From UHGV virus genome UHGV-0125821: a stretch of DNA of 64,000 bases. One strand, 5' to 3'. Position 1 is the stretch's first letter, and each line of letters opens with the position of its first letter. The notes under the pieces were generated by a model. It saw only the letters and a program-made list of their open reading frames with translations, searched no databases and was not told the DNA's origin. This document shows, piece after piece, positions 5,934 through 27,375 of this stretch. Position numbers and translations under genes: made by a program. The DNA comes from a virus.

Positions 5934-7616
5934 ATGGCAACGAAAGACAAAAACAAAGGCTTTCTGTCAGCATTGAAGAAAGCCTTCAACGGTGGTGATG
6001 TTACGCCCGCCGATCCGGTCGTTTTTACGAGCGGACATAGTGTCGTTGCTCGTTCCGGCCTGTCTGCTTTACGTCCAGGCATCCTGGGGAGCAATAGCGA
6101 TGGCATGACGAGTGAAGCAGATTCAATTTCTTTATCCGCTGAACTGCCCGGCGAGCGCCTGCAAAAGTACAACATCCTGGAAACGATGGCTAAAAGCCCG
6201 ACTATCTCGACGGCTTTAAATATTCACATTGCACATGCGCTTGCGCCTTCAAAAAAAACCGGACAAGCATTCATCCTTTCGCCAAAGGATGGTTCCGATG
6301 CCGAGGCAGTAAGTAGATGTGAAGAGTTAACCGCTGATTTGGGGGCGATGATTAATGACGGACTTCCTTCATGGGCCATGATTATGGCGATCTTTGGGGT
6401 GTCTTATGTCCGACCTTATGCTGAACAGGGCAGGGGGATAACAGGCATTGAGTCCAGTTATTACACTCTGCCACACTTCGTCCAGGAGTTTTATCGTGGT
6501 AGCCAGCTGGTAGGTTTCAGTGGTGATTACATTCTGGATACGCATAGTTTGCGCAGAGTAATAACCGAACCGTGGAATCTGGTTTCCATGAAAAATCCCT
6601 ATTGGACGCCACAGCATAAAGTTATTCCGGTTAGCTACGGCACAAAAGGGTACTCACTGTTAAGTGATCAGGCTGATAAGCCGTTAATGGAGACGCAGAA
6701 TTACGGAACTTCATTCCTGGAATACAGCTATGAACCTTACCTTAATTTATGTGCTTCGCTCGCCGCGCTGAAATCAACGCGAAATAATGCAGCCAAAATT
6801 GACCGCCTGATTGCTCTTACGACGAACACACTGGACCCGGTTAATGCGGCGAACTATACGCGTGGCGTCAGCCAGGCATTGAAGCGTCATAGTGACCTGG
6901 TGGCGCAAAGGTCGATTAATGCCAACGCTATTCCGACTGTGCTTAACCATCTGATACCTGTTATGGGAGACGGGAAGAACGGCATCACCATTGATACGCA
7001 ATCCATACCCGCAGATATCAGTGGTATTGAAGACGTTATGTTTCACCTCCGGCAGCTTGCTGCAAGCCTCGGCATTGACGCAACAATGCTTGGCTGGGCT
7101 GATCAGATGAGCGGAGGGCTTGGAGAAGGCGGCTGGCAGCAAACTGCTATCCAGGCTGCATTGCGTGCGAACTGGATCAGACAGGCCGCCCAGCGAACTA
7201 TTTATCGGCTTCTGGACATTCACCTCGCTTATAAATATGGCAAGGTTTACACCGAAACAAACCGCCCTTATGACGTGCAATTCAACTCAATGAACACAGC
7301 TATCCAGGAAGAGGAAAACCGAGAACTGGATGCACGCGCCAACTTTGTTGCTGTCATCTCCCAAATTATGGACCAGATCCAGAACAACCCGAAACTGGCT
7401 GGTAGCGACGCGTTTATGCGTTATCTGTTCACTGAGCAGTTGCACATCGACGATGACACTCTCAACACCATGATCAAAGAGTTTAAGGCGAATGAATCAG
7501 AGCAAAACAACGAGCATGGTATGTACGAATCCGCGCCGTTGTCGTCCGGTGACGATCCGGAAAACTGGACGCCAGAACAGTTAATAAACTTTGCAAAATT
7601 TGTGATGAGCAATTAA
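5934..7616 (+). CDS. Hypothetical protein (dar-like operon)
   Basis: 560-aa ORF on the same strand, tightly packed. Confidence 0.55.
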   Translation: MATKDKNKGFLSALKKAFNGGDVTPADPVVFTSGHSVVARSGLSALRPGILGSNSDGMTSEADSISLSAELPGERLQKYNILETMAKSPTISTALNIHIAHALAPSKKTGQAFILSPKDGSDAEAVSRCEELTADLGAMINDGLPSWAMIMAIFGVSYVRPYAEQGRGITGIESSYYTLPHFVQEFYRGSQLVGFSGDYILDTHSLRRVITEPWNLVSMKNPYWTPQHKVIPVSYGTKGYSLLSDQADKPLMETQNYGTSFLEYSYEPYLNLCASLAALKSTRNNAAKIDRLIALTTNTLDPVNAANYTRGVSQALKRHSDLVAQRSINANAIPTVLNHLIPVMGDGKNGITIDTQSIPADISGIEDVMFHLRQLAASLGIDATMLGWADQMSGGLGEGGWQQTAIQAALRANWIRQAAQRTIYRLLDIHLAYKYGKVYTETNRPYDVQFNSMNTAIQEEENRELDARANFVAVISQIMDQIQNNPKLAGSDAFMRYLFTEQLHIDDDTLNTMIKEFKANESEQNNEHGMYESAPLSSGDDPENWTPEQLINFAKFVMSN

Positions 7617-20829: not shown

Positions 20830-22038
20830 ATGAGTCAACACACTGATACTTCTAATCTGGAAATTATCTCGACAGCAATTGAAACGCTGCGCACACAAAT
20901 CGCTCTTATACAGAAACGGAATCCGGGTGATGACCTGTCAAAGCGACTGCACGAGAGTGTCATTGCCACTACAGATAACCTGGTGGCGGAAATCAACAAG
21001 CTGCTTGATGATGGGGCAGTTGATTACAATAAGCTGGTGGATCAGTTTGAGGAATACCAACAAGCAGTTAATGATGGCTTGATCCGTTTTTCACAAGTCA
21101 CAGGCGTATCAGCGACAGTTGAAAGCCTGGGTGATGCAGTTAATCAATTTGCCGCGAATATGCGTAATGAGATCGGCAATCTGGAAGCGCGTCTTGAACA
21201 GGCAAATACACTGCGTAAATCTGCCGAAGCCGATTTGAACCGTTACAAAAAAGACTATCCGCCCAGCCTGACAAAGCGGCTGGATGTTGCGGAGAAGGAT
21301 AACCGCACGCTGAAAAGAGAGCGCCGGGAACTAAAAGAGCGTTTAACCAAGCTCAATCAGCAATGCATTGATTATCAAGGCGAAGGCGTCACACTGCGTA
21401 AAAAGTTGGCTACAGCGCAGAGCATTATCGAAACATTAAAGCGAGAGTGCTCACAGCTTGGTCACGATCTGAACCGTGCTTGTGGCATGGGACAAAGACC
21501 AGAGACATTTCCACTTATGTATGACGGAAGGGATGCCATTGCCTACATCCATGAGTATCCGCACGGCCTGGTTGCGGAAACTGGGCAGCGTGGCGAAGCA
21601 CTGCTGACGGCTAATTACCATCAACAAATCAGAACCAATCGCTTGTTAACGATGGATGTGATCCCATCGGTATGGGGAACGCCGCTTTACTATCGCCTGC
21701 CGGGCTTCGAAAAGGACTGGAATACCGACATAGACGAATGTCTCGCAGATAAAATTATGGCGTACCTGGAGACGGATTTTCCGCGCTTATATCGCCGGAT
21801 TATGGACTCTAAGGATGCGCCAATCGATGAATTAAAAATGCGTCCGGAGACGCTGGAGGCAATCAAGCAGACGGAGTTTGATACTGTATTCAGTGTGGCC
21901 TGCATTCCAAGCTGTTTCCATGAAAGCATTCCGTTCATGCAAGGAGATCGTCGTCAGGAAATCATTGACGCTTGCCGGGTATGGGCGAACGAATGGGATA
22001 AGAAGAATGGGGGTGTAGAAGATCTTTACGGGAAATAA
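20830..22038 (+). CDS. Hypothetical protein with N-terminal coiled coil
   Basis: 402-aa ORF bracketed by operator-like motifs at both ends. Confidence 0.6.
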   Translation: MSQHTDTSNLEIISTAIETLRTQIALIQKRNPGDDLSKRLHESVIATTDNLVAEINKLLDDGAVDYNKLVDQFEEYQQAVNDGLIRFSQVTGVSATVESLGDAVNQFAANMRNEIGNLEARLEQANTLRKSAEADLNRYKKDYPPSLTKRLDVAEKDNRTLKRERRELKERLTKLNQQCIDYQGEGVTLRKKLATAQSIIETLKRECSQLGHDLNRACGMGQRPETFPLMYDGRDAIAYIHEYPHGLVAETGQRGEALLTANYHQQIRTNRLLTMDVIPSVWGTPLYYRLPGFEKDWNTDIDECLADKIMAYLETDFPRLYRRIMDSKDAPIDELKMRPETLEAIKQTEFDTVFSVACIPSCFHESIPFMQGDRRQEIIDACRVWANEWDKKNGGVEDLYGK

Positions 22039-22054
22039 TGTGTTAGAAATCTAA
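22039..22054. promoter_or_regulatory. Operator-like motif TGTGTTAGAAATCTAA
   Basis: Core GTTAGAA immediately followed by TCTAA; right after the 20830-22038 stop. Confidence 0.35.
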
Positions 22055-22196
22055 AATCACAATTCGAATGTATTGATTGTGAGGGTAACTTAACATAGAA
22101 TTTTCCTTGCTGGTGGGCGGTACCCACGTTTCGCTTGCTGGGCTTGATAGTCACTTATTGGTTATTGTTCGCCCACCAGCATTTAACAAATTAAAG

Positions 22197-22209
22197 TGTT
22201 AGAAAAATA
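22197..22209. promoter_or_regulatory. Operator-like motif GTGTTAGAAAAAT
   Basis: Same core as the other copies. Confidence 0.35.
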
Positions 22210-22547
22210 TAGTAACGCAAGAGCACGCTTTGGCACCGTGCAGGCCAAAGTTCAGCAGGTTTAGTGCGGAAAGTGGTTTCAGAGAGAGCACTTTGCGGAG
22301 TAAACGACAATACATGTTGAGCCACGGAAGGTCTTTTTAAGGTGTTCATTGATGATGGTCCGGCAGAGAGTAACGGTACATGCTGCATCTAATCATCAAT
22401 GCACATCTTCAACATTAAGGAGGCATAGGGATTTTTGTGGCGGTTACCTTTTGCCCTGAGTCTCCTTAATGTTGCAGTAATGCACCTATGCGGATGTGGC
22501 CTTGCATTGTGTCTTGAAAGAATGGGGTAAGGCCGGGGATATCCCCA

Positions 22548-22562
22548 GGGGGAGGCACCCCC
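22548..22562 (+). other. RNA hairpin GGGGG-AGGCA-CCCCC (1 of 3 with invariant AGGCA loop)
   Basis: 5-bp stem, 5-nt loop; stems differ between copies by compensatory changes. Confidence 0.4.
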
Positions 22563-22788
22563 GCTGCAACGAACAGCCACAGACGGCAGTCTAGTGATGG
22601 AAACGTGCAAAGACTTTAAACCTCGTTACGGCTGGCGTGGCAAACGCGACAACCGAGACAGAGCGGTGACGGGCGGAGAGAGTGCCGCATCAAGAAAGAA
22701 GCCGACTTGTGATCCCTTTCAGCGGGCATTTGAAAGTGAATCTAGCTCAGGCAGTCGGCTTCTTTCTTGTGTGAGATGTAGCGTATTT

Positions 22789-22812
22789 GCCCATCTTCGG
22801 GTGGGCTTTTTT
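22789..22812 (+). terminator. Rho-independent terminator closing an ORF-poor structured region
   Basis: GCCCATC-TTCG-GGTGGGC followed by TTTTTT; preceded by a long imperfect hairpin at about 22700-22770. Confidence 0.6.
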
Positions 22813-23272
22813 AGGGTTTTCGTCATGGTTAGCGACTTTGCGGCGGTTTAGAAACCGACCATTAAAGTAAATGCAAACGATGATCTGATGATGGTAGCGG
22901 CCTAAGAAGCCTGACGCCACGGGGTATGAGTCGTCCCCCGTCAAAAAATCGACCGCAGAGTGTCCCCGTCTGTGTATTAGGGAACGGGGAGGCATAACAG
23001 GCAAGGGCGCTGGTGTGATTAACCAGATGAATGAGAAGGGTCAGGTCTTTCTGGTCAGCGCCCTTACCTGTTACGTCCCTCCCGCGTAATAGCCATTGCT
23101 TAATGGCATCCTGGGGGAATTTCTTGTAACGGGTATATCCCGTCATGCTGAAGGCGCTAATCACGCTGGAAGCCAGGGTTATGCATCCCCTGTTACTGAA
23201 TTGCAGCCAGGGCGCGGTGCGCCGAAAAGCATACGGAGGTGGAAGCCCTCGCCGGAGACGTACCCGGCAAGT

Positions 23273-23348
23273 GATGGTGTAGCTCAGCGGTTAGAGCGGT
23301 TGACTGTTAATCAACGGGTCGATGGTTCAAATCCATCCACCATCGCCA
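23273..23348 (+). tRNA. tRNA-Asn (anticodon GTT)
   Basis: Manual fold: 7-bp acceptor GATGGTG/CACCATC, D-arm GCTC..GAGC, anticodon loop CTGTTAA, T-arm GATGG-TTCAAAT-CCATC, 3-prime CCA. Confidence 0.9.
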
Positions 23349-23350
23349 AT

Positions 23351-23426
23351 GCCGGTTTAGCTCAGTTGGTAGAGCGCCTGCCTTGTAAGCAGGATGTCAG
23401 CGGTTCGAGTCCGTTAACCGGCACCA
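23351..23426 (+). tRNA. tRNA-Thr (anticodon TGT)
   Basis: Acceptor GCCGGTT/AACCGGC, anticodon loop CTTGTAA, T-loop TTCGAGT, 3-prime CCA; 2 nt after tRNA-Asn. Confidence 0.9.
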
Positions 23427-23847
23427 ACACAACAGGTAAGGGTATTTTGCGACGTCGGAGATCGCCGTGCTTGGCAGAGGGTTCGAATCCCTACGAAGTA
23501 CCCTTACCGTTGTGATGAAGTGCAGCTCTTTGAAGCAACCAGAAGATAAGCATCTGGCTTCACAACATAAACCGCAGGAACGACCAATAAACGGTAGTCC
23601 GTATGGAGAACACCCCGTTGAGGAAGAGGCCTGGCCGGAACCGTAACCGGCACTACAACGTTAAGAACACTGGCGTAACGGGGTCATATCCCAATCTATG
23701 AATAAATGTTGCGTTGCAGCGTGACAACCAGTGTTCTCAACATTGTGGTGAATGCACAGGCTGATGTGCCGCAACTACAGTAGTGCGCGCTTTGCGGGGC
23801 TTGCTACAACCCTGTGTCGGAGTTCAGCACCGACCATCACAATCACT

Positions 23848-23934
23848 GGAGAGTAGGGAGCATGGTGCTCAAACGGTCTTGAAAACCGTCCCATTGCGCA
23901 AGCGATGATGGTTCGATTCCATTACTCTCCGCCA
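23848..23934 (+). tRNA. tRNA-Ser-like gene (anticodon TGA, long variable arm)
   Basis: Manual fold: acceptor GGAGAGT/ACTCTCC, anticodon stem ACGGT/ACCGT with loop CTTGAAA, 4-bp variable-arm hairpin, T-arm GATGG-TTCGATT-CCATT, discriminator G and CCA; D-arm short (3 bp). Confidence 0.45.
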
Positions 23935-24142
23935 GTGCAACGTTAAGAGTATTTGGCTAATTAAGCGAATGCCGGAAGCAGAACCGGATCACCAAATGCG
24001 TACAGGCGTCATCGCCGCCCAGCCAGCCAAGTGCTCTTACCATTGCGGTGAATGCGGTTAAGCGCACGCGGAACAGTTAAAACAATCCTCCTTAGTGGTT
24101 AAGTCAAACATCCCGGCGTTAATTGTTAACTGGTTAACGTCA

Positions 24143-24157
24143 CCTGGAGGCACCAGG
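24143..24157 (+). other. RNA hairpin CCTGG-AGGCA-CCAGG (2 of 3 with invariant AGGCA loop)
   Basis: Same loop as 22548 and 25771 with a covarying stem; followed by a T-run at 24166-24172. Confidence 0.4.
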
Positions 24158-24197
24158 CACCGCAGCTTTTTTATTCGTTAAATAATGGAGTGAGAGG

Positions 24198-24434
24198 ATG
24201 CAGAACAATCCGAACAAATGTCGAACGCTATGGGTGCGGTTATATATTTATGTCGCCCTCTGTTTGATTGTGTCACTGGTTCTGTATGTTTGGCTTTTGC
24301 CAAATATGATCTCATCTGACAGCACAATACTTGTATTGTTGGGAGTCCTTCTCGCGCTCATTTACCCGGCTTTTGCAGTAGTCTTTTTTCGTGAAAAAAC
24401 CAGGAAATTGATTAATGAAAAAAACGTTGATTAG
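24198..24434 (+). CDS. Small integral membrane protein
   Basis: 78 aa with two hydrophobic helices; overlaps the start of the downstream SPFH gene. Confidence 0.4.
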   Translation: MQNNPNKCRTLWVRLYIYVALCLIVSLVLYVWLLPNMISSDSTILVLLGVLLALIYPAFAVVFFREKTRKLINEKNVD

Positions 24435-25221
24435 TGCAGCGATTATTTTTGGTTCTTTATGTCTGACCGGATGCGACCGGGTAGAACCAGGCAATGTAGG
24501 GATCAAAGTAAATAAGCTGGGGGATGATAAAGGTGTCGGCGAAGTAGTTGGCGTTGGTCGCTACTGGACAGGCTGGAACACAGAAGTTTATATCTTCCCG
24601 ACCTTTAAGCAAATGAAGACCTATGATGATCCGTTCAGCTTCCAAATGAGCGACGGGACAACAATTGGTTACCACATTGGTGTAGCTTACAAGGTTGATC
24701 CGGCAAAAGTCACAACTGTATTTCAGACCTACCGCAAAGGCGTGGATGACATTACCGACACTGACCTGCGCCAGAAGATCGCCGATGCACTCAACCGACT
24801 GGCCAGCAAAATGACCACCGATAAGTTTATCGACGGTGGTAAGTCTGAACTGCTGGATTCAGCACTTAAAGATATTCAGGAAGAGATGACCCCCATCGGC
24901 ATTCAGGTCATGAGCCTCTCTTATGTCGGTAAACCGGAATATCCGCCAACCGTTATCGACAGCATTAATGCAAAAGTCACGGCGAACCAGAAAACTCTGC
25001 AACGCGAAGCAGAAGCCAACATGCTGCGCGCAGAAGCTGCCGGACAGGCCGATGCCATTCGCACAAAAGCCCAGGCTGAAGCTGATGCCATTCGTTTACG
25101 CGGTGAGGCTCTGCGCCAGAACCCCGGCGTTATGGAGTTGGAAGCGATCAACAAATGGAACGGAACGCTACCGCAGTATATGACCAGTAATACCGCTGTT
25201 CCGTTTGTTCCGGTGAAATAA
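24415..25221 (+). CDS. SPFH/band-7 (prohibitin/HflC-like) domain lipoprotein
   Basis: Lipobox LTGC in the signal peptide; SPFH-type core and Ala/Glu-rich C-terminal helix (AEANMLRAEAAGQADAIRTKAQAEADAIR). Confidence 0.65.
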   Translation: MKKTLISAAIIFGSLCLTGCDRVEPGNVGIKVNKLGDDKGVGEVVGVGRYWTGWNTEVYIFPTFKQMKTYDDPFSFQMSDGTTIGYHIGVAYKVDPAKVTTVFQTYRKGVDDITDTDLRQKIADALNRLASKMTTDKFIDGGKSELLDSALKDIQEEMTPIGIQVMSLSYVGKPEYPPTVIDSINAKVTANQKTLQREAEANMLRAEAAGQADAIRTKAQAEADAIRLRGEALRQNPGVMELEAINKWNGTLPQYMTSNTAVPFVPVK

Positions 25222-25375
25222 CCAAATAGATAACATGATGGAATTTTGGACGTTTGCCGACAAGAACCCTTGGTGGACATTTTTATTTCTGCTGGTGGTT
25301 GCATATGGGGTCGAGCAAGCAGCAAAAGCCTTACGCGGTCCTGGCAAAAAGCGTAAGCGGAATTAACAGTAATCT

Positions 25376-25451
25376 GGCCCTTTAGCTCAGTGGTTAGAGC
25401 AGGCGACTCATAATCGCACGGTCACCGGTTCAAATCCGGTAGGGGCCACCA
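25376..25451 (+). tRNA. tRNA-Ile (anticodon CAT, lysidine type; tRNA-Met not excluded)
   Basis: GGCCCTTTAGCTCAGTGGTTAGAGCAGGCGACTCATAATCGC... closely resembles E. coli ileX/ileY tRNA; 3-prime CCA encoded. Confidence 0.85.
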
Positions 25452-25770
25452 TATTTGGTTGTAACACGGCGTCTGGCACATGCGTCGTTAGCGGTCTGGT
25501 GACGTTAAAAGGGGTATCTTTGACTCTTGCTTAGGCAAACGGACCAGGTAGCCGGAATGTGCAAGCCCCGGTAACAGTGGCGGACCGAGGACTCACCATC
25601 CTGGCGATTCGGTGTGACAGCCGGAAGAGCACGGCGCACAACAGGAAAAGGCGTTTAATTAGCGTGAGCGCCGTTTCCGTTGTGGTAATTGCGGCTATGC
25701 GCTCGTGACGAAGCCATTTTCATTCACTACGTTCTGATAAGTGACGTCGCCAGGAGTGGCTAACCTGGCA

Positions 25771-25785
25771 GGTGGAGGCACCACC
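25771..25785 (+). other. RNA hairpin GGTGG-AGGCA-CCACC (3 of 3 with invariant AGGCA loop)
   Basis: Third copy with a covarying stem; in the non-coding stretch between tRNA-Ile and the 25907 gene. Confidence 0.4.
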
Positions 25786-25906
25786 GCCACAACTCCTTTC
25801 AATTCATCATATAGCCGCTCAGGCTGTACCCCTTAATTAATACGAAGTTACGACATCACTACCGGTACTTCCGGGGGATAGTCGCGCGTGTAAAAAAGGA
25901 GACGTT

Positions 25907-26482
25907 ATGTTAATGGCGAACGATAACGCATATGCAGAAGAAGATCTCATTTTGAGTGACTTCATAGGGAAGCGTGAACGCTGGACCCAAAAGCGAGAGG
26001 AACTTTACGCCTCATTAGTTCGCAAAGGCGTCAATATCGAAACCGCACAGAGCGGCGATATGACAGTGGTAAGCGTTGGATTGCACGGTGTAAGCGTGTC
26101 AGCAATCAATCATGAGCCATACGTTGCGTTATCCGAGTCAATGGTAAGGTTAGTTAAGTTCCTGAAGTACACAGAAGCGAATAATGTAATCATTGGCAAA
26201 AAGAATATCCCTTTTTCCTCGGCTTTTTACTGGATGATGAAAGGGCTTGATGCCCGGCGGACATCATGGCCTAAAGGGAGCTATATATCGATGTTCCGTG
26301 GCAGCATTGGCAGCAAAGAAAAGCTCTTCGAATTCTTGCCGGAAGAGGCATTCGATATTGTGGAAGGGTGCGATGTGATGGTGATGCCTCGCCTGGTAAT
26401 GATGAATGGTGATTTACAGGCGCAGACAGACTGGTTTGCAACTGGTGTGGATATTATCGCGACTGACTGGGAGGCTTTCTGA
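25907..26482 (+). CDS. Hypothetical protein
   Basis: 191-aa ORF; AAGGAG upstream. Confidence 0.5.
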   Translation: MLMANDNAYAEEDLILSDFIGKRERWTQKREELYASLVRKGVNIETAQSGDMTVVSVGLHGVSVSAINHEPYVALSESMVRLVKFLKYTEANNVIIGKKNIPFSSAFYWMMKGLDARRTSWPKGSYISMFRGSIGSKEKLFEFLPEEAFDIVEGCDVMVMPRLVMMNGDLQAQTDWFATGVDIIATDWEAF

Positions 26483-26874
26483 TGTACGGGACTACCAAAT
26501 TAAGCACTCAACAGGCCACCAATATGGAGTGGTCTATCGCTAACTGTAAGATCGTGTCATGCAATGCCACGCGTACTGATGTGGGCCATAAAAGCACTAT
26601 AACAGGCTATCTAGTAATGACCACCAGGGGGATGAGGGTTAGCTTTCGCTGGAAAGCAGAGCAAGTAACGCCATTCAGAGAGCCATCAATGCCGCTGCAG
26701 GTTGAGCAGGATTATCTATGTTTACCAGAAATAGATGGCGGAATGCTGGTGGAGTCTGATGGTAGTAAGGCTGATTTTGAAGCCAATTTGAAGCTGGCAC
26801 AGGCCGTAATCAATAGTTATCGCGGAAAGTGGATCGCAAAAGTGAAACATGTTGTTCGTTTGTCTCGCTGGTAG
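26482..26874 (+). CDS. Hypothetical protein
   Basis: 130-aa ORF, start overlapping the upstream stop. Confidence 0.5.
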   Translation: MYGTTKLSTQQATNMEWSIANCKIVSCNATRTDVGHKSTITGYLVMTTRGMRVSFRWKAEQVTPFREPSMPLQVEQDYLCLPEIDGGMLVESDGSKADFEANLKLAQAVINSYRGKWIAKVKHVVRLSRW

Positions 26875-26890
26875 CGTTAGGTATTTAATA

Positions 26891-26906
26891 TTAATTTTCT
26901 AATACA
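26891..26906. promoter_or_regulatory. Operator-like motif TTAATTTTCTAATACA (variant core TCTAATA)
   Basis: About 80 nt upstream of the lpa-position gene; in P1 the lpa promoter is C1-controlled. Confidence 0.4.
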
Positions 26907-26982
26907 ATCATCTTTTTACCAGTCTATACAGTTTTAACATTCTCATTATCATCCCCTCGGTCATTTCCTGCCCGGGGGATTA

Positions 26983-27375
26983 ATGGAACAAATCAGCAGC
27001 GCAGAAATTGCGGATATCATGATCAGGGCTGACTGCTATCTGACAGTCACTGAAATTACCACTCTCGCCAAAGAAAAATACCCTCATCTCCATGTTTCAC
27101 GAGTAAGTGTAACTAACATCATTCGTCATTTTGTTCGTTCAAGCAGGGCAATCTGTGAGCTTGATGATCGTGTTTACCCACGAAAATACTGGTTGCATGG
27201 CCTGAACGGATATCAGTTCAAGGTGCGTGGGCGAACCCCTGAATATGGCAGTTTACTGGTTAAAAACTGTAGCAGGAAATCAGTCGAACAGGCGCGAAAA
27301 GAGCAACGAGAGCTGGTGGACATGGCGAATAAGCTGTGGAATGCCGCCGTTATAAAGCGTGGTGTTGCTTTATGA
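26983..27375 (+). CDS. Late-promoter-activator-position protein (Lpa-like, by position upstream of pacA)
   Basis: 130-aa ORF whose stop overlaps the pacA ATG (ATGA); operator-like motif upstream. No sequence recognition. Confidence 0.4.
   Translation: MEQISSAEIADIMIRADCYLTVTEITTLAKEKYPHLHVSRVSVTNIIRHFVRSSRAICELDDRVYPRKYWLHGLNGYQFKVRGRTPEYGSLLVKNCSRKSVEQARKEQRELVDMANKLWNAAVIKRGVAL

Follow-up and report, generated by a model that had tools for sequence, protein, structure and literature searches.

Among the described systems built on SPFH proteins, HflK/HflC and the SPFH–NfeD operons offer the closest comparison for the two-gene locus reported here, a gene for a small inner-membrane hairpin followed by one for an SPFH lipoprotein, which lies on the virus genome UHGV-0125821 within a stretch of 64,000 nucleotides (hereafter the window). 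Very probably the pair forms a self-contained phage cassette, whose second product, translationally coupled to the hairpin, would be exported, anchored by a lipid on Cys20 and held on the periplasmic face of the inner membrane in the manner of HflK/C. Like HflK and HflC, the phage protein carries a long coiled-coil helix after its SPFH domain and ends in a tail, and would be anchored in the inner membrane with its bulk in the periplasm. The best sequence matches among solved structures are also HflK/C (E=1e-4), at 16–20% identity. However, the phage protein has a lipid anchor in place of an N-terminal transmembrane (TM) helix, is encoded by a single gene and not by a K/C paralogue pair, and is phage-borne with a hairpin partner of its own. 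Its scores against the NCBIfam equivalogs of HflK and HflC (TIGR01933, TIGR01932, NF008181, and NF008259) are 11–21 bits, where the cutoffs are 134–660 bits. Membership in these equivalogs was rejected on the scores, the lipid anchor and the single gene.

In the SPFH–NfeD operons, represented by QmcA–YbbJ (PDB 8z5g) and by archaeal stomatin PH1511 with PH1510, a small membrane partner accompanies the SPFH protein, and the two genes often overlap and are occasionally fused, as are those of the phage pair. The phage partner, however, is a bare two-TM hairpin that lacks an NfeD/OB-fold or protease domain, and the phage SPFH domain is predicted to face the periplasm, whereas that of QmcA faces the cytoplasm. 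The pair is no SPFH–NfeD operon in the strict sense, although the operon logic is alike. A Pfam/NCBIfam scan of the hairpin (E≤1) returned neither NfeD nor a protease domain, and its 78 residues are too short for either; the small TciC-like ORF 3' of the SPFH gene likewise gave neither. The original prediction had noted that SPFH proteins often partner with proteases, an expectation that finds no echo here: Pfam, NCBIfam and PADLOC gave no protease, NfeD or defence match, and where several phage records say 'serine protease', they follow a habit of annotating the SPFH family.

Three further comparisons come from phages and prophages. The gp19 and gp20 proteins of phage N4 are true orthologues of the pair, with gp19 a 68-residue hairpin that carries the same loop motif and with overlapping genes; unlike the window's element, N4 is strictly virulent, and its gp20 has Tyr at the +2 position. 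No function for gp19/gp20 is described in the literature searched. Kayvirus MbpV/MbpS likewise places the gene of a small membrane protein immediately 5' of an SPFH gene of similar length in a virulent phage, but the identity is only ~24%, MbpS is TM-anchored, MbpV has one TM helix and a charged tail without the loop motif, and the genes lie in the lysis region. The authors of that work speculate that MbpS aids Sec export of Tgl, and note that MbpV 'resembles holins' (PMC7150955). Finally, the Pasteurella multocida protein PM0222 (Pmorf0222), which we liken by its description, is also a prophage-encoded, HflK/C-like SPFH protein. It is reported to be secreted in outer-membrane vesicles (OMVs), to signal through Toll-like receptors (TLR) 1/2 and to contribute to virulence (PMC9872710), and unlike the present pair it has been studied as a host-directed virulence factor and TLR2 agonist only.

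The SPFH lipoprotein and its hairpin partner

The 268-residue product of the second open reading frame (ORF) matches Pfam Band_7 (PF01145) with E=3.3e-30 and 105.9 bits (cutoff 23.6), above the gathering score, the alignment covering residues 22–208 of the protein and positions 2–176 of the 176 in the profile. In addition, the PHROG family phrog_200, named 'lipoprotein', matches with E=2.6e-109. The N-terminus reads MKKTLISAAIIFGSLCLTG followed by Cys20 and Asp21, with an MKK n-region, a hydrophobic h-region and an L-T-G-C lipobox (consensus [LVI][ASTVI][GAS]C), so that the protein has the textbook features of a lipoprotein with a predicted signal peptide of the Lgt/LspA-substrate type. The lipobox cysteine is invariant in an alignment of 68 sequences. 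An exhaustive HMMER search of 1.84 billion representatives yielded 179 clusters at E≤1e-30, and among the best 150 of these, which were examined, the cysteine is kept in 135 and replaced by an uncleaved TM anchor in 14. Asp is found at +2 in the window protein and in all close enterobacterial homologues, and Asp at this position is the classical inner-membrane retention signal of E. coli. The +2 residue, the 14 TM-anchored members and the natural fusions to an inner-membrane partner described below together support residence of the SPFH protein in the inner membrane. We note a fairly common E. coli variant (P0118; 276 residues, 23 contigs) in which the lipobox Cys is changed to Tyr (IIGYDRVEPG); judged by this change, it would escape lipidation.

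An AlphaFold2 (AF2) model, built as a single chain from the 68-sequence alignment, has a mean predicted local distance difference test (pLDDT) score of 81.4, with low confidence in the C-terminal tail KWNGxLP...PF though the tail is conserved. In Foldseek comparisons with the PDB, the model matches prohibitin (8rrh), HflK/C (7vhq and 7wi3) and erlin (9vvj) at the top (E~1e-13), followed by stomatin, flotillin, QmcA and then major vault protein; the probability is 1.00 for prohibitin, HflK/C, erlin, stomatin, flotillin and QmcA. All of these are formers of rings or cages, and the modelled fold is theirs. Prohibitin, HflK/C and erlin face away from the cytoplasm, which is the side required of the lipoprotein. 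The Band_7 match, the lipobox and the predicted fold bear out the original prediction of an SPFH lipoprotein, for which confirmation by a hidden Markov model (HMM) had been proposed.

Relative to the usual 275-residue form, the window allele carries a 21-bp in-frame deletion that takes out one heptad of the coiled coil (QEVKQRE). The deletion sits between two copies of CAACGCGAA and keeps both the reading frame and the heptad register, and the resulting 268-residue allele is present on at least 16 public contigs. The ratio of non-synonymous to synonymous substitution rates (dN/dS) is 0.018–0.077 for the SPFH ORF and 0.17–0.30 for the hairpin ORF (in pairs with unsaturated dS), values at which both ORFs are under purifying selection, strongly so in the case of SPFH.

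The partner encoded by the first ORF consists of two hydrophobic helices (residues ~10–36 and ~42–66), with positive charges at both termini and the short loop PNMISSDST between the helices. The predicted topology is N-in/C-in, which would place the conserved loop LLPNMISSDST in the periplasm. The hairpin matches phrog_1130 'membrane protein' (E=4e-14; 4.2e-14 unrounded), and its turn between the helices carries the motif G..P.L(I/V)S(A/S).(D/S)T..V..G, which is common to 64 non-redundant hairpins. With the corresponding protein of phage P88 it shares 48% identity (E=6e-21), where the SPFH proteins of the two elements share 92%, and the hairpin evidently evolves much faster than the SPFH protein. 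The gene tends to escape automatic annotation: the record of RCS47 leaves it out (locus L001, 4156–4392), and in the listed E. coli RefSeq matches that span the ORF (H111–H139) only an 'SPFH domain-containing protein' is annotated. The tiny membrane protein foreseen in the original prediction is a two-helix hairpin, conserved 5' of the SPFH gene.

Several features tie the two genes to each other. In the window they overlap by 20 nucleotides, which include an A7 run, and an overlap of 4–17 nucleotides is kept in P88, Stx2, N4, ORM_20 and CKB-S1. The hairpin ORF is intact directly 5' of the SPFH gene in ~77 of 80 close IMG/VR loci, and both ORFs are intact in ~97% of close relatives as well as in the window. 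A word-indexed search with the hairpin reached close relatives only, and the distant partners were found through their position and a custom HMM made from seven hairpins. When the SPFH proteins of 214 loci were clustered at 90% identity, 30 of the 44 resulting clusters had a match to this HMM immediately 5' of the SPFH gene on the same strand, and in seven further clusters inspection revealed a two-TM ORF with the same loop motif. These observations support the hairpin as a genuine, conserved partner and speak against a chance ORF.

The two proteins are also found as one. Natural in-frame fusions, in the order hairpin, linker, signal peptide with lipobox Cys, and SPFH domain, make up 16–19 of the best 150 representatives. 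Because of these fusions the two proteins are likely to work together; moreover, the fusions are topologically coherent only with the hairpin C-terminus in the cytoplasm and the SPFH domain in the periplasm, which argues for a 1:1 functional unit. A fusion in the window's own lineage, P0001, results from a one-base slip from A7 to A6 in the gene overlap, its DNA (L220) reading aatgaaaaaacg where the window reads aatgaaaaaaacg. P0001 is present in one NCBI assembly and one Logan assembly, and its AF2 model comprises three N-terminal helices and the SPFH fold. The polymorphism of the A-runs could be sequencing noise or slippage-driven variation. A candidate C-terminal hairpin fusion, P0309, was not used: its normal C-terminal tail is lost, and it has the appearance of a downstream hairpin ORF reached by frameshift or read-through.

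The pair is widely distributed. A tblastn search detected SPFH homologues in 766 of 50,697 phage records. Among 5,426 complete E. coli genomes, 515 (~9%) carry one, on plasmids in 201 places and on chromosomes in 391; the gene is common in phage-plasmids of pathogenic E. coli (O157, O111, and O103) and in Shiga toxin (Stx) phages. In the P2-like phage P88, a 67-residue membrane protein and a 276-residue lipoprotein are encoded in an early operon, and in Stx2/lambdoid phages the pair lies on the early-left side between cI and xis/int, with a 62-residue partner that is unannotated. In virulent N4, gp20 is 60% identical to the SPFH protein, and gp19/gp20 stand in the early region beside gp18, which the record calls 'superinfection exclusion'. 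Other strictly virulent carriers are Vequintavirinae, Vibrio phage CKB-S1, Ochrobactrum phage ORM_20, and jumbo, crAss-like and Lak phages. Distant homologues at ~24% identity include Staphylococcus Kayvirus MbpV/MbpS, between lysK and tgl, and proteins of haloarchaeal viruses. Two chromosomal examples, in Vibrio and Epibacterium, stand amid small hypothetical genes with a small ORF 5' in both, the latter with a phage integrase ~2 kb downstream. In sum, the pair appears as a cassette of many unrelated phages, temperate and virulent, usually placed among early or non-structural genes.

Table 1. Features of the hairpin–SPFH locus and its surroundings; nucleotide positions are those of the window, residue numbers those of the SPFH protein
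Feature	Position	Strand	Description and basis
Inner-membrane hairpin gene	24198..24434	+	78 aa; phrog_1130, P88 partner, HMM, motif, dN/dS
Shine–Dalgarno sequence	just 5' of hairpin gene		GGAGTGAGAGG
SPFH/Band_7 lipoprotein gene	24415..25221	+	268 aa; Pfam, PHROG, AF2, Foldseek, dN/dS
SPFH protein, signal peptide	aa 1-19		predicted
SPFH protein, lipobox	Cys20		Asp21 at +2
SPFH protein, SPFH alpha/beta domain	aa ~20-175
SPFH protein, coiled-coil helix	aa 178-235		58 residues
SPFH protein, short helix	aa 238-247		followed by conserved tail KWNGxLP...PF
21-bp in-frame deletion site	24997..25014 (after base 25005)	+	DNA alignment with RCS47 and P88; protein alignment
A7 homopolymer in gene overlap	24418..24424	+	A6 allele joins both ORFs into the 347-aa protein P0001
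Second A-run (A6)	24394-24399	+	variable; alters the cytoplasmic tail of the hairpin (variants L007, L036)
Cassette relative to D6	24165..25233	+	1,069 bp in place of the 631-bp tciA-tciB of D6
Leader ending in a U-run	24044..24164	+	just 5' of cassette; Rfam RF02076 (STnc100), 39.5 bits (gathering score 47), E=2.5e-7
TciC homologue	25235..25366	+	43-aa single-TM ORF; compared with P1 TciC and D6 ORF 6642-6755
tRNA-Asn	23273-23348		upstream of the pair; ARAGORN
tRNA-Thr	23351-23426		upstream of the pair; ARAGORN
tRNA-Ser (UGA), left flanking tRNA	23848..23934	+	ARAGORN; D6 annotation; present in D6, absent from P1
CAT-anticodon tRNA, right flanking tRNA	25376..25451	+	ARAGORN: Met; P1 homologue annotated trnI (ileX-like tRNA-Ile2)

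A variable slot between tRNA genes

The region shares ~97% identity over 5 kb with many non-mobilisable E. coli and Salmonella plasmids of ~90 kb, and its arrangement is collinear with that of phage D6: pmgS-like gene, ~1.2 kb of non-coding DNA, tRNA genes, slot, two ORFs, lpa and pacA. The window is, on this comparison of sequences, a D6-like relative of P1 and a phage-plasmid, and the pair does stand between tRNA genes, three upstream and one downstream; both points agree with the original prediction. Aligned by blastn with D6 (locus L003), the window shows homology at 22001–24164 and 25234–27000 and none in between, with flanks that are 95.5% (left) and 95.6% (right) identical. P1 keeps plp/upl and tciABC in the same tRNA-flanked slot. 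In the P1-like elements RCS47 and Ro157c2YLVW the slot holds the same hairpin and SPFH genes, at 88% DNA identity, and the shared segment ends right at the tRNA. The locus is a cassette exchange in a known variable slot, an ordinary swap of accessory genes. The original prediction had found the arrangement unusual for its position in a tRNA cluster of a phage-plasmid, a view that is not supported, given that the slot is the known variable slot of P1 and that the pair also occurs in P2-like, Stx-lambdoid and N4 phages. The guanine-plus-cytosine contents of the hairpin gene (40%), the SPFH gene (49%) and the window (48%) make the composition of the cassette unremarkable.

The module displaced in the window, TciA–TciB–TciC of P1 and D6, resembles the new cassette in occupying the same slot between tRNA genes and in that TciB is also a small two-TM protein; TciC is retained. 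However, TciA is a TerB-domain protein whose sequence has no signal peptide, and is not an SPFH protein, and no homology between TciB and the hairpin is detectable (no DUF3927 match in the Pfam scan). The locus does not belong to tciABC: the TerB protein TciA and the DUF3927 protein TciB are both gone, replaced by the cassette, and the TciC homologue remains. The function of tciABC, resistance to tellurite or colicins, is itself a homology-based annotation. The TciC homologue is a leftover of the displaced tciABC. The P1-like elements with the SPFH cassette lack it (in RCS47 the tRNA comes directly after the SPFH stop codon), and for this reason it is probably no part of the SPFH module.

Immediately 3' of the CAT-anticodon tRNA, a 191-residue ORF (25907–26482, + strand) contains a Tad2-like domain (Thoeris anti-defence 2; PF11195, 39.1 bits, cutoff 25, E=1e-9), and D6 annotates its homologue as a hypothetical protein only. 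Because this gene adjoins the slot, the segment from pmgS to lpa may be an accessory region that carries anti-defence and host-interaction cargo. The CAT-anticodon tRNA itself would probably read AUA after lysidine modification, since its P1 homologue is annotated trnI. For the left flanking tRNA-Ser(UGA), the best Rfam match is tRNA-Sec at 45.1 bits, just below the gathering score of 47, and in the D6 record tRNAscan-SE leaves the amino acid of the homologue uncalled.

Two stretches upstream of the cassette deserve a brief description. Between 23497 and 23841 (− strand), the DNA is homologous to the plp/upl region of P1 and contains only broken minus-strand ORFs of 49 and 37 residues; the annotated plp of P1 overlaps tRNA-Thr on the opposite strand. 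On these two observations, plp is doubtful as a real gene in the lineage of the window. Further upstream, from the pmgS-like gene to the first tRNA, ~1.2 kb (22039–23272) is without a convincing ORF and holds a promoter-like site (22073–22101) and a strong intrinsic terminator (22786–22815); the part from 22786 on has its P1 homologue in the region after the element annotated as 'dicF-like'. This non-coding DNA probably encodes small RNAs.

The leader just 5' of the cassette belongs to a stretch of homology (24027–24164) common to D6, where it precedes tciA, and to the P1-like carriers, where it precedes the SPFH cassette; it contains a palindrome centred on GTTAAC. At 24020–24200, the predicted fold gains no stability over shuffled sequence (z=−0.49). 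The leader was considered as a structured RNA of the STnc100 family and set aside, the Rfam score being below the gathering score and the fold insignificant, and we mention it only in passing.

Working model and alternative explanations

In the working that we propose, the first gene would yield a hairpin of ~60–80 residues with both termini in the cytoplasm, and a conserved nine-residue loop (P-x-L/M-I/V-S-S/A-x-D/S-T) alone would be exposed to the periplasm. The second gene would be translated in coupling with the first, and its product would be exported, lipidated at Cys20 and, because of the retention signal at +2, kept on the periplasmic face of the inner membrane. There, the SPFH subunits would oligomerise via the long helix into a ring or cage enclosing a separate patch of the inner membrane; oligomerisation would be expected because the domain order (SPFH, long helix, tail) is the same as in all solved SPFH proteins. 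The hairpins, made 1:1 with SPFH, would be held at or inside the ring via their periplasmic loops, and their relation to the SPFH protein would be that of NfeD to QmcA, or of the client FtsH to HflK/C. By analogy with the solved systems, we give such a ring or cage with docked hairpins an even chance of being how the module works.

Because the module is found in the early or non-structural operons of both temperate and strictly virulent phages, we propose that it serves the lytic cycle. It might preserve or insulate the energised inner membrane of the infected cell, possibly by excluding superinfecting phage DNA or pore-formers, or by preventing premature depolarisation and lysis. That its role is to keep this membrane intact and energised is a tentative suggestion, drawn from the occurrence in virulent and temperate carriers, from the early gene setting, and from the alternation in the slot with a TerB-like module annotated by homology for colicin or tellurite resistance. 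The original prediction had looked to lysogeny and plasmid stability, and either is unlikely as the primary function since strictly virulent phages (N4, Vequintavirinae, and jumbo phages) commonly carry the module; we do not think that the pair acts as a lysogenic-conversion or plasmid-maintenance factor. Overall, the explanation that we prefer, while giving it no better than a balanced chance, is that, during lytic growth, the SPFH protein serves with its hairpin partner as an inner-membrane scaffold facing the periplasm.

Several observations weigh against this scaffold reading. The +2 residue differs in distant SPFH members, being Tyr in N4, Glu in a Cronobacter phage and Ser or Thr in non-enterics, and some members of the family may be targeted to the outer membrane. 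Distant Gram-positive and Caulobacter versions of SPFH carry other small partners. Oligomerisation and hairpin binding are argued by analogy, from models that are single-chain. As for the putative early or lytic timing of expression in the window's element, a sigma-70 consensus scan of 22000–26000 found no site next to the cassette, the sole one being the promoter-like site in the non-coding DNA upstream, and even with three mismatches allowed, the entire 64 kb contains no copy of the P1 C1 operator consensus ATTGCTCTAATAAATTT. D6 encodes a C1-like repressor, and the D6-type repressor presumably recognises an operator other than the P1 consensus. With regard to function, PADLOC-DB v2 (2023) gave zero matches at E≤1 for the three ORFs, and no known defence component was found. 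A full-text literature search returned no functional study of a phage SPFH protein, the mentions being limited to annotations, PM0222 and the Kayvirus speculation, and a recent paper states that the reason why phages carry an SPFH gene 'remains unclear' (PMC13239085, 2026).

A bolder form of the scaffold reading holds that the pair is an ancient cross-phage module, whose periplasm-facing cage would shield the membrane of the infected cell from depolarisation, be it by superinfecting phage, by pore-forming colicins or by abortive-infection effectors that target membranes, and whose fused forms would be cut by lipoprotein signal peptidase at the internal lipobox. This would amount to a new class of membrane protection or counter-defence, and we consider it rather unlikely.

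An alternative client is a host protein. HflK/C affects the turnover of lambda CII, and members of the group formed by HflK/C, prohibitin and erlin have AAA proteases or the machinery of endoplasmic-reticulum-associated degradation as partners. The phage protein could be a mimic of HflK/C, whose cage captures or displaces host FtsH or another inner-membrane protein with a periplasmic domain and so alters the turnover of membrane or regulatory substrates. The best solved-structure and NCBIfam matches are indeed HflK and HflC, the fold and the periplasm-facing topology match the group, and the SPFH gene is frequent in temperate enterobacterial phages. However, the similarity is weak (~20 bits against 134–660; 16–20% identity), there is one SPFH gene with a lipid anchor and no TM helix where HflK/C is a pair, and the dedicated, co-evolving hairpin with its fusions suggests that the client or partner is encoded by the phage. 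The module is also found in virulent phages, which make no lysogeny decision, and in haloarchaeal viruses; to our knowledge, archaea lack FtsH. We regard mimicry of HflK/C as improbable.

Class II holins have two TM helices and an N-in/C-in topology, and the 60–80-residue hairpin shares this size and predicted layout. On these grounds the pair could be a device for the timing of lysis, in which a hairpin similar to a class II holin or a pinholin has its oligomerisation restrained or organised by the SPFH ring, by a control akin to that of an antiholin or by the organisation of rafts. A weak match of the hairpin to phrog_565 'holin' (E=0.016) points the same way, as does the position of MbpV/MbpS between lysK and tgl, together with the authors' remark on MbpV (PMC7150955). 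Yet the match is not significant, holins do not typically have a periplasmic loop conserved so sharply, and the pair lies away from the lysis genes in N4, P2-like, Stx, Vibrio and Ochrobactrum phages and in the window, so that a lysis timer, too, seems improbable. Enterobacterial carriers have separate lysis genes. A spanin-like role was rejected, the module being present also in Gram-positive and archaeal viruses.

Bacterial lipoproteins stimulate TLR2 generically. A surface or virulence lipoprotein acquired by lysogenic conversion, expressed from the prophage or plasmid, released in OMVs and acting on the animal host as PM0222 is reported to do (PMC9872710), would suit the abundance of the gene in phages and phage-plasmids of pathogenic E. 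coli, but such TLR2 stimulation is no specific sign, the family abounds in virulent and environmental phages without the context of an animal host, Asp at +2 argues for retention in the inner membrane and the hairpin is left without a role, which makes this reading highly improbable. Equally hard to credit is the view that the cassette has no present function in the window's element and rides along as neutral or decaying cargo, its missing heptad and slippery A-runs being marks of erosion: the deletion in the window allele, the A-run variants, occasional truncated partners (L047, L061) and the Cys-to-Tyr variant P0118 fit such decay, but the SPFH dN/dS of 0.02–0.08, the in-frame loss of exactly one heptad, the integrity of both ORFs in the window and most close relatives, and the spread of the 268-residue allele over many contigs run counter to it.

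Public databases already list both proteins under generic names, and what is of modest interest is the wider picture, in which phages of very different kinds share an uncharacterised hairpin–SPFH module, in some cases as a fusion. The SPFH scaffolds HflK/C, prohibitin, stomatin and flotillin are among the most widespread and least understood organisers of membranes, and a minimal version, comprising a lipid-anchored SPFH protein and a hairpin of 60–80 residues, is a mobile unit of enterobacterial, vibrio and alpha-proteobacterial phages. As a small two-gene system in tractable phages (N4, P1-like, and P2-like), it would be a convenient model for client recognition by SPFH cages, and the module could reveal what phages need from the inner membrane of their hosts.

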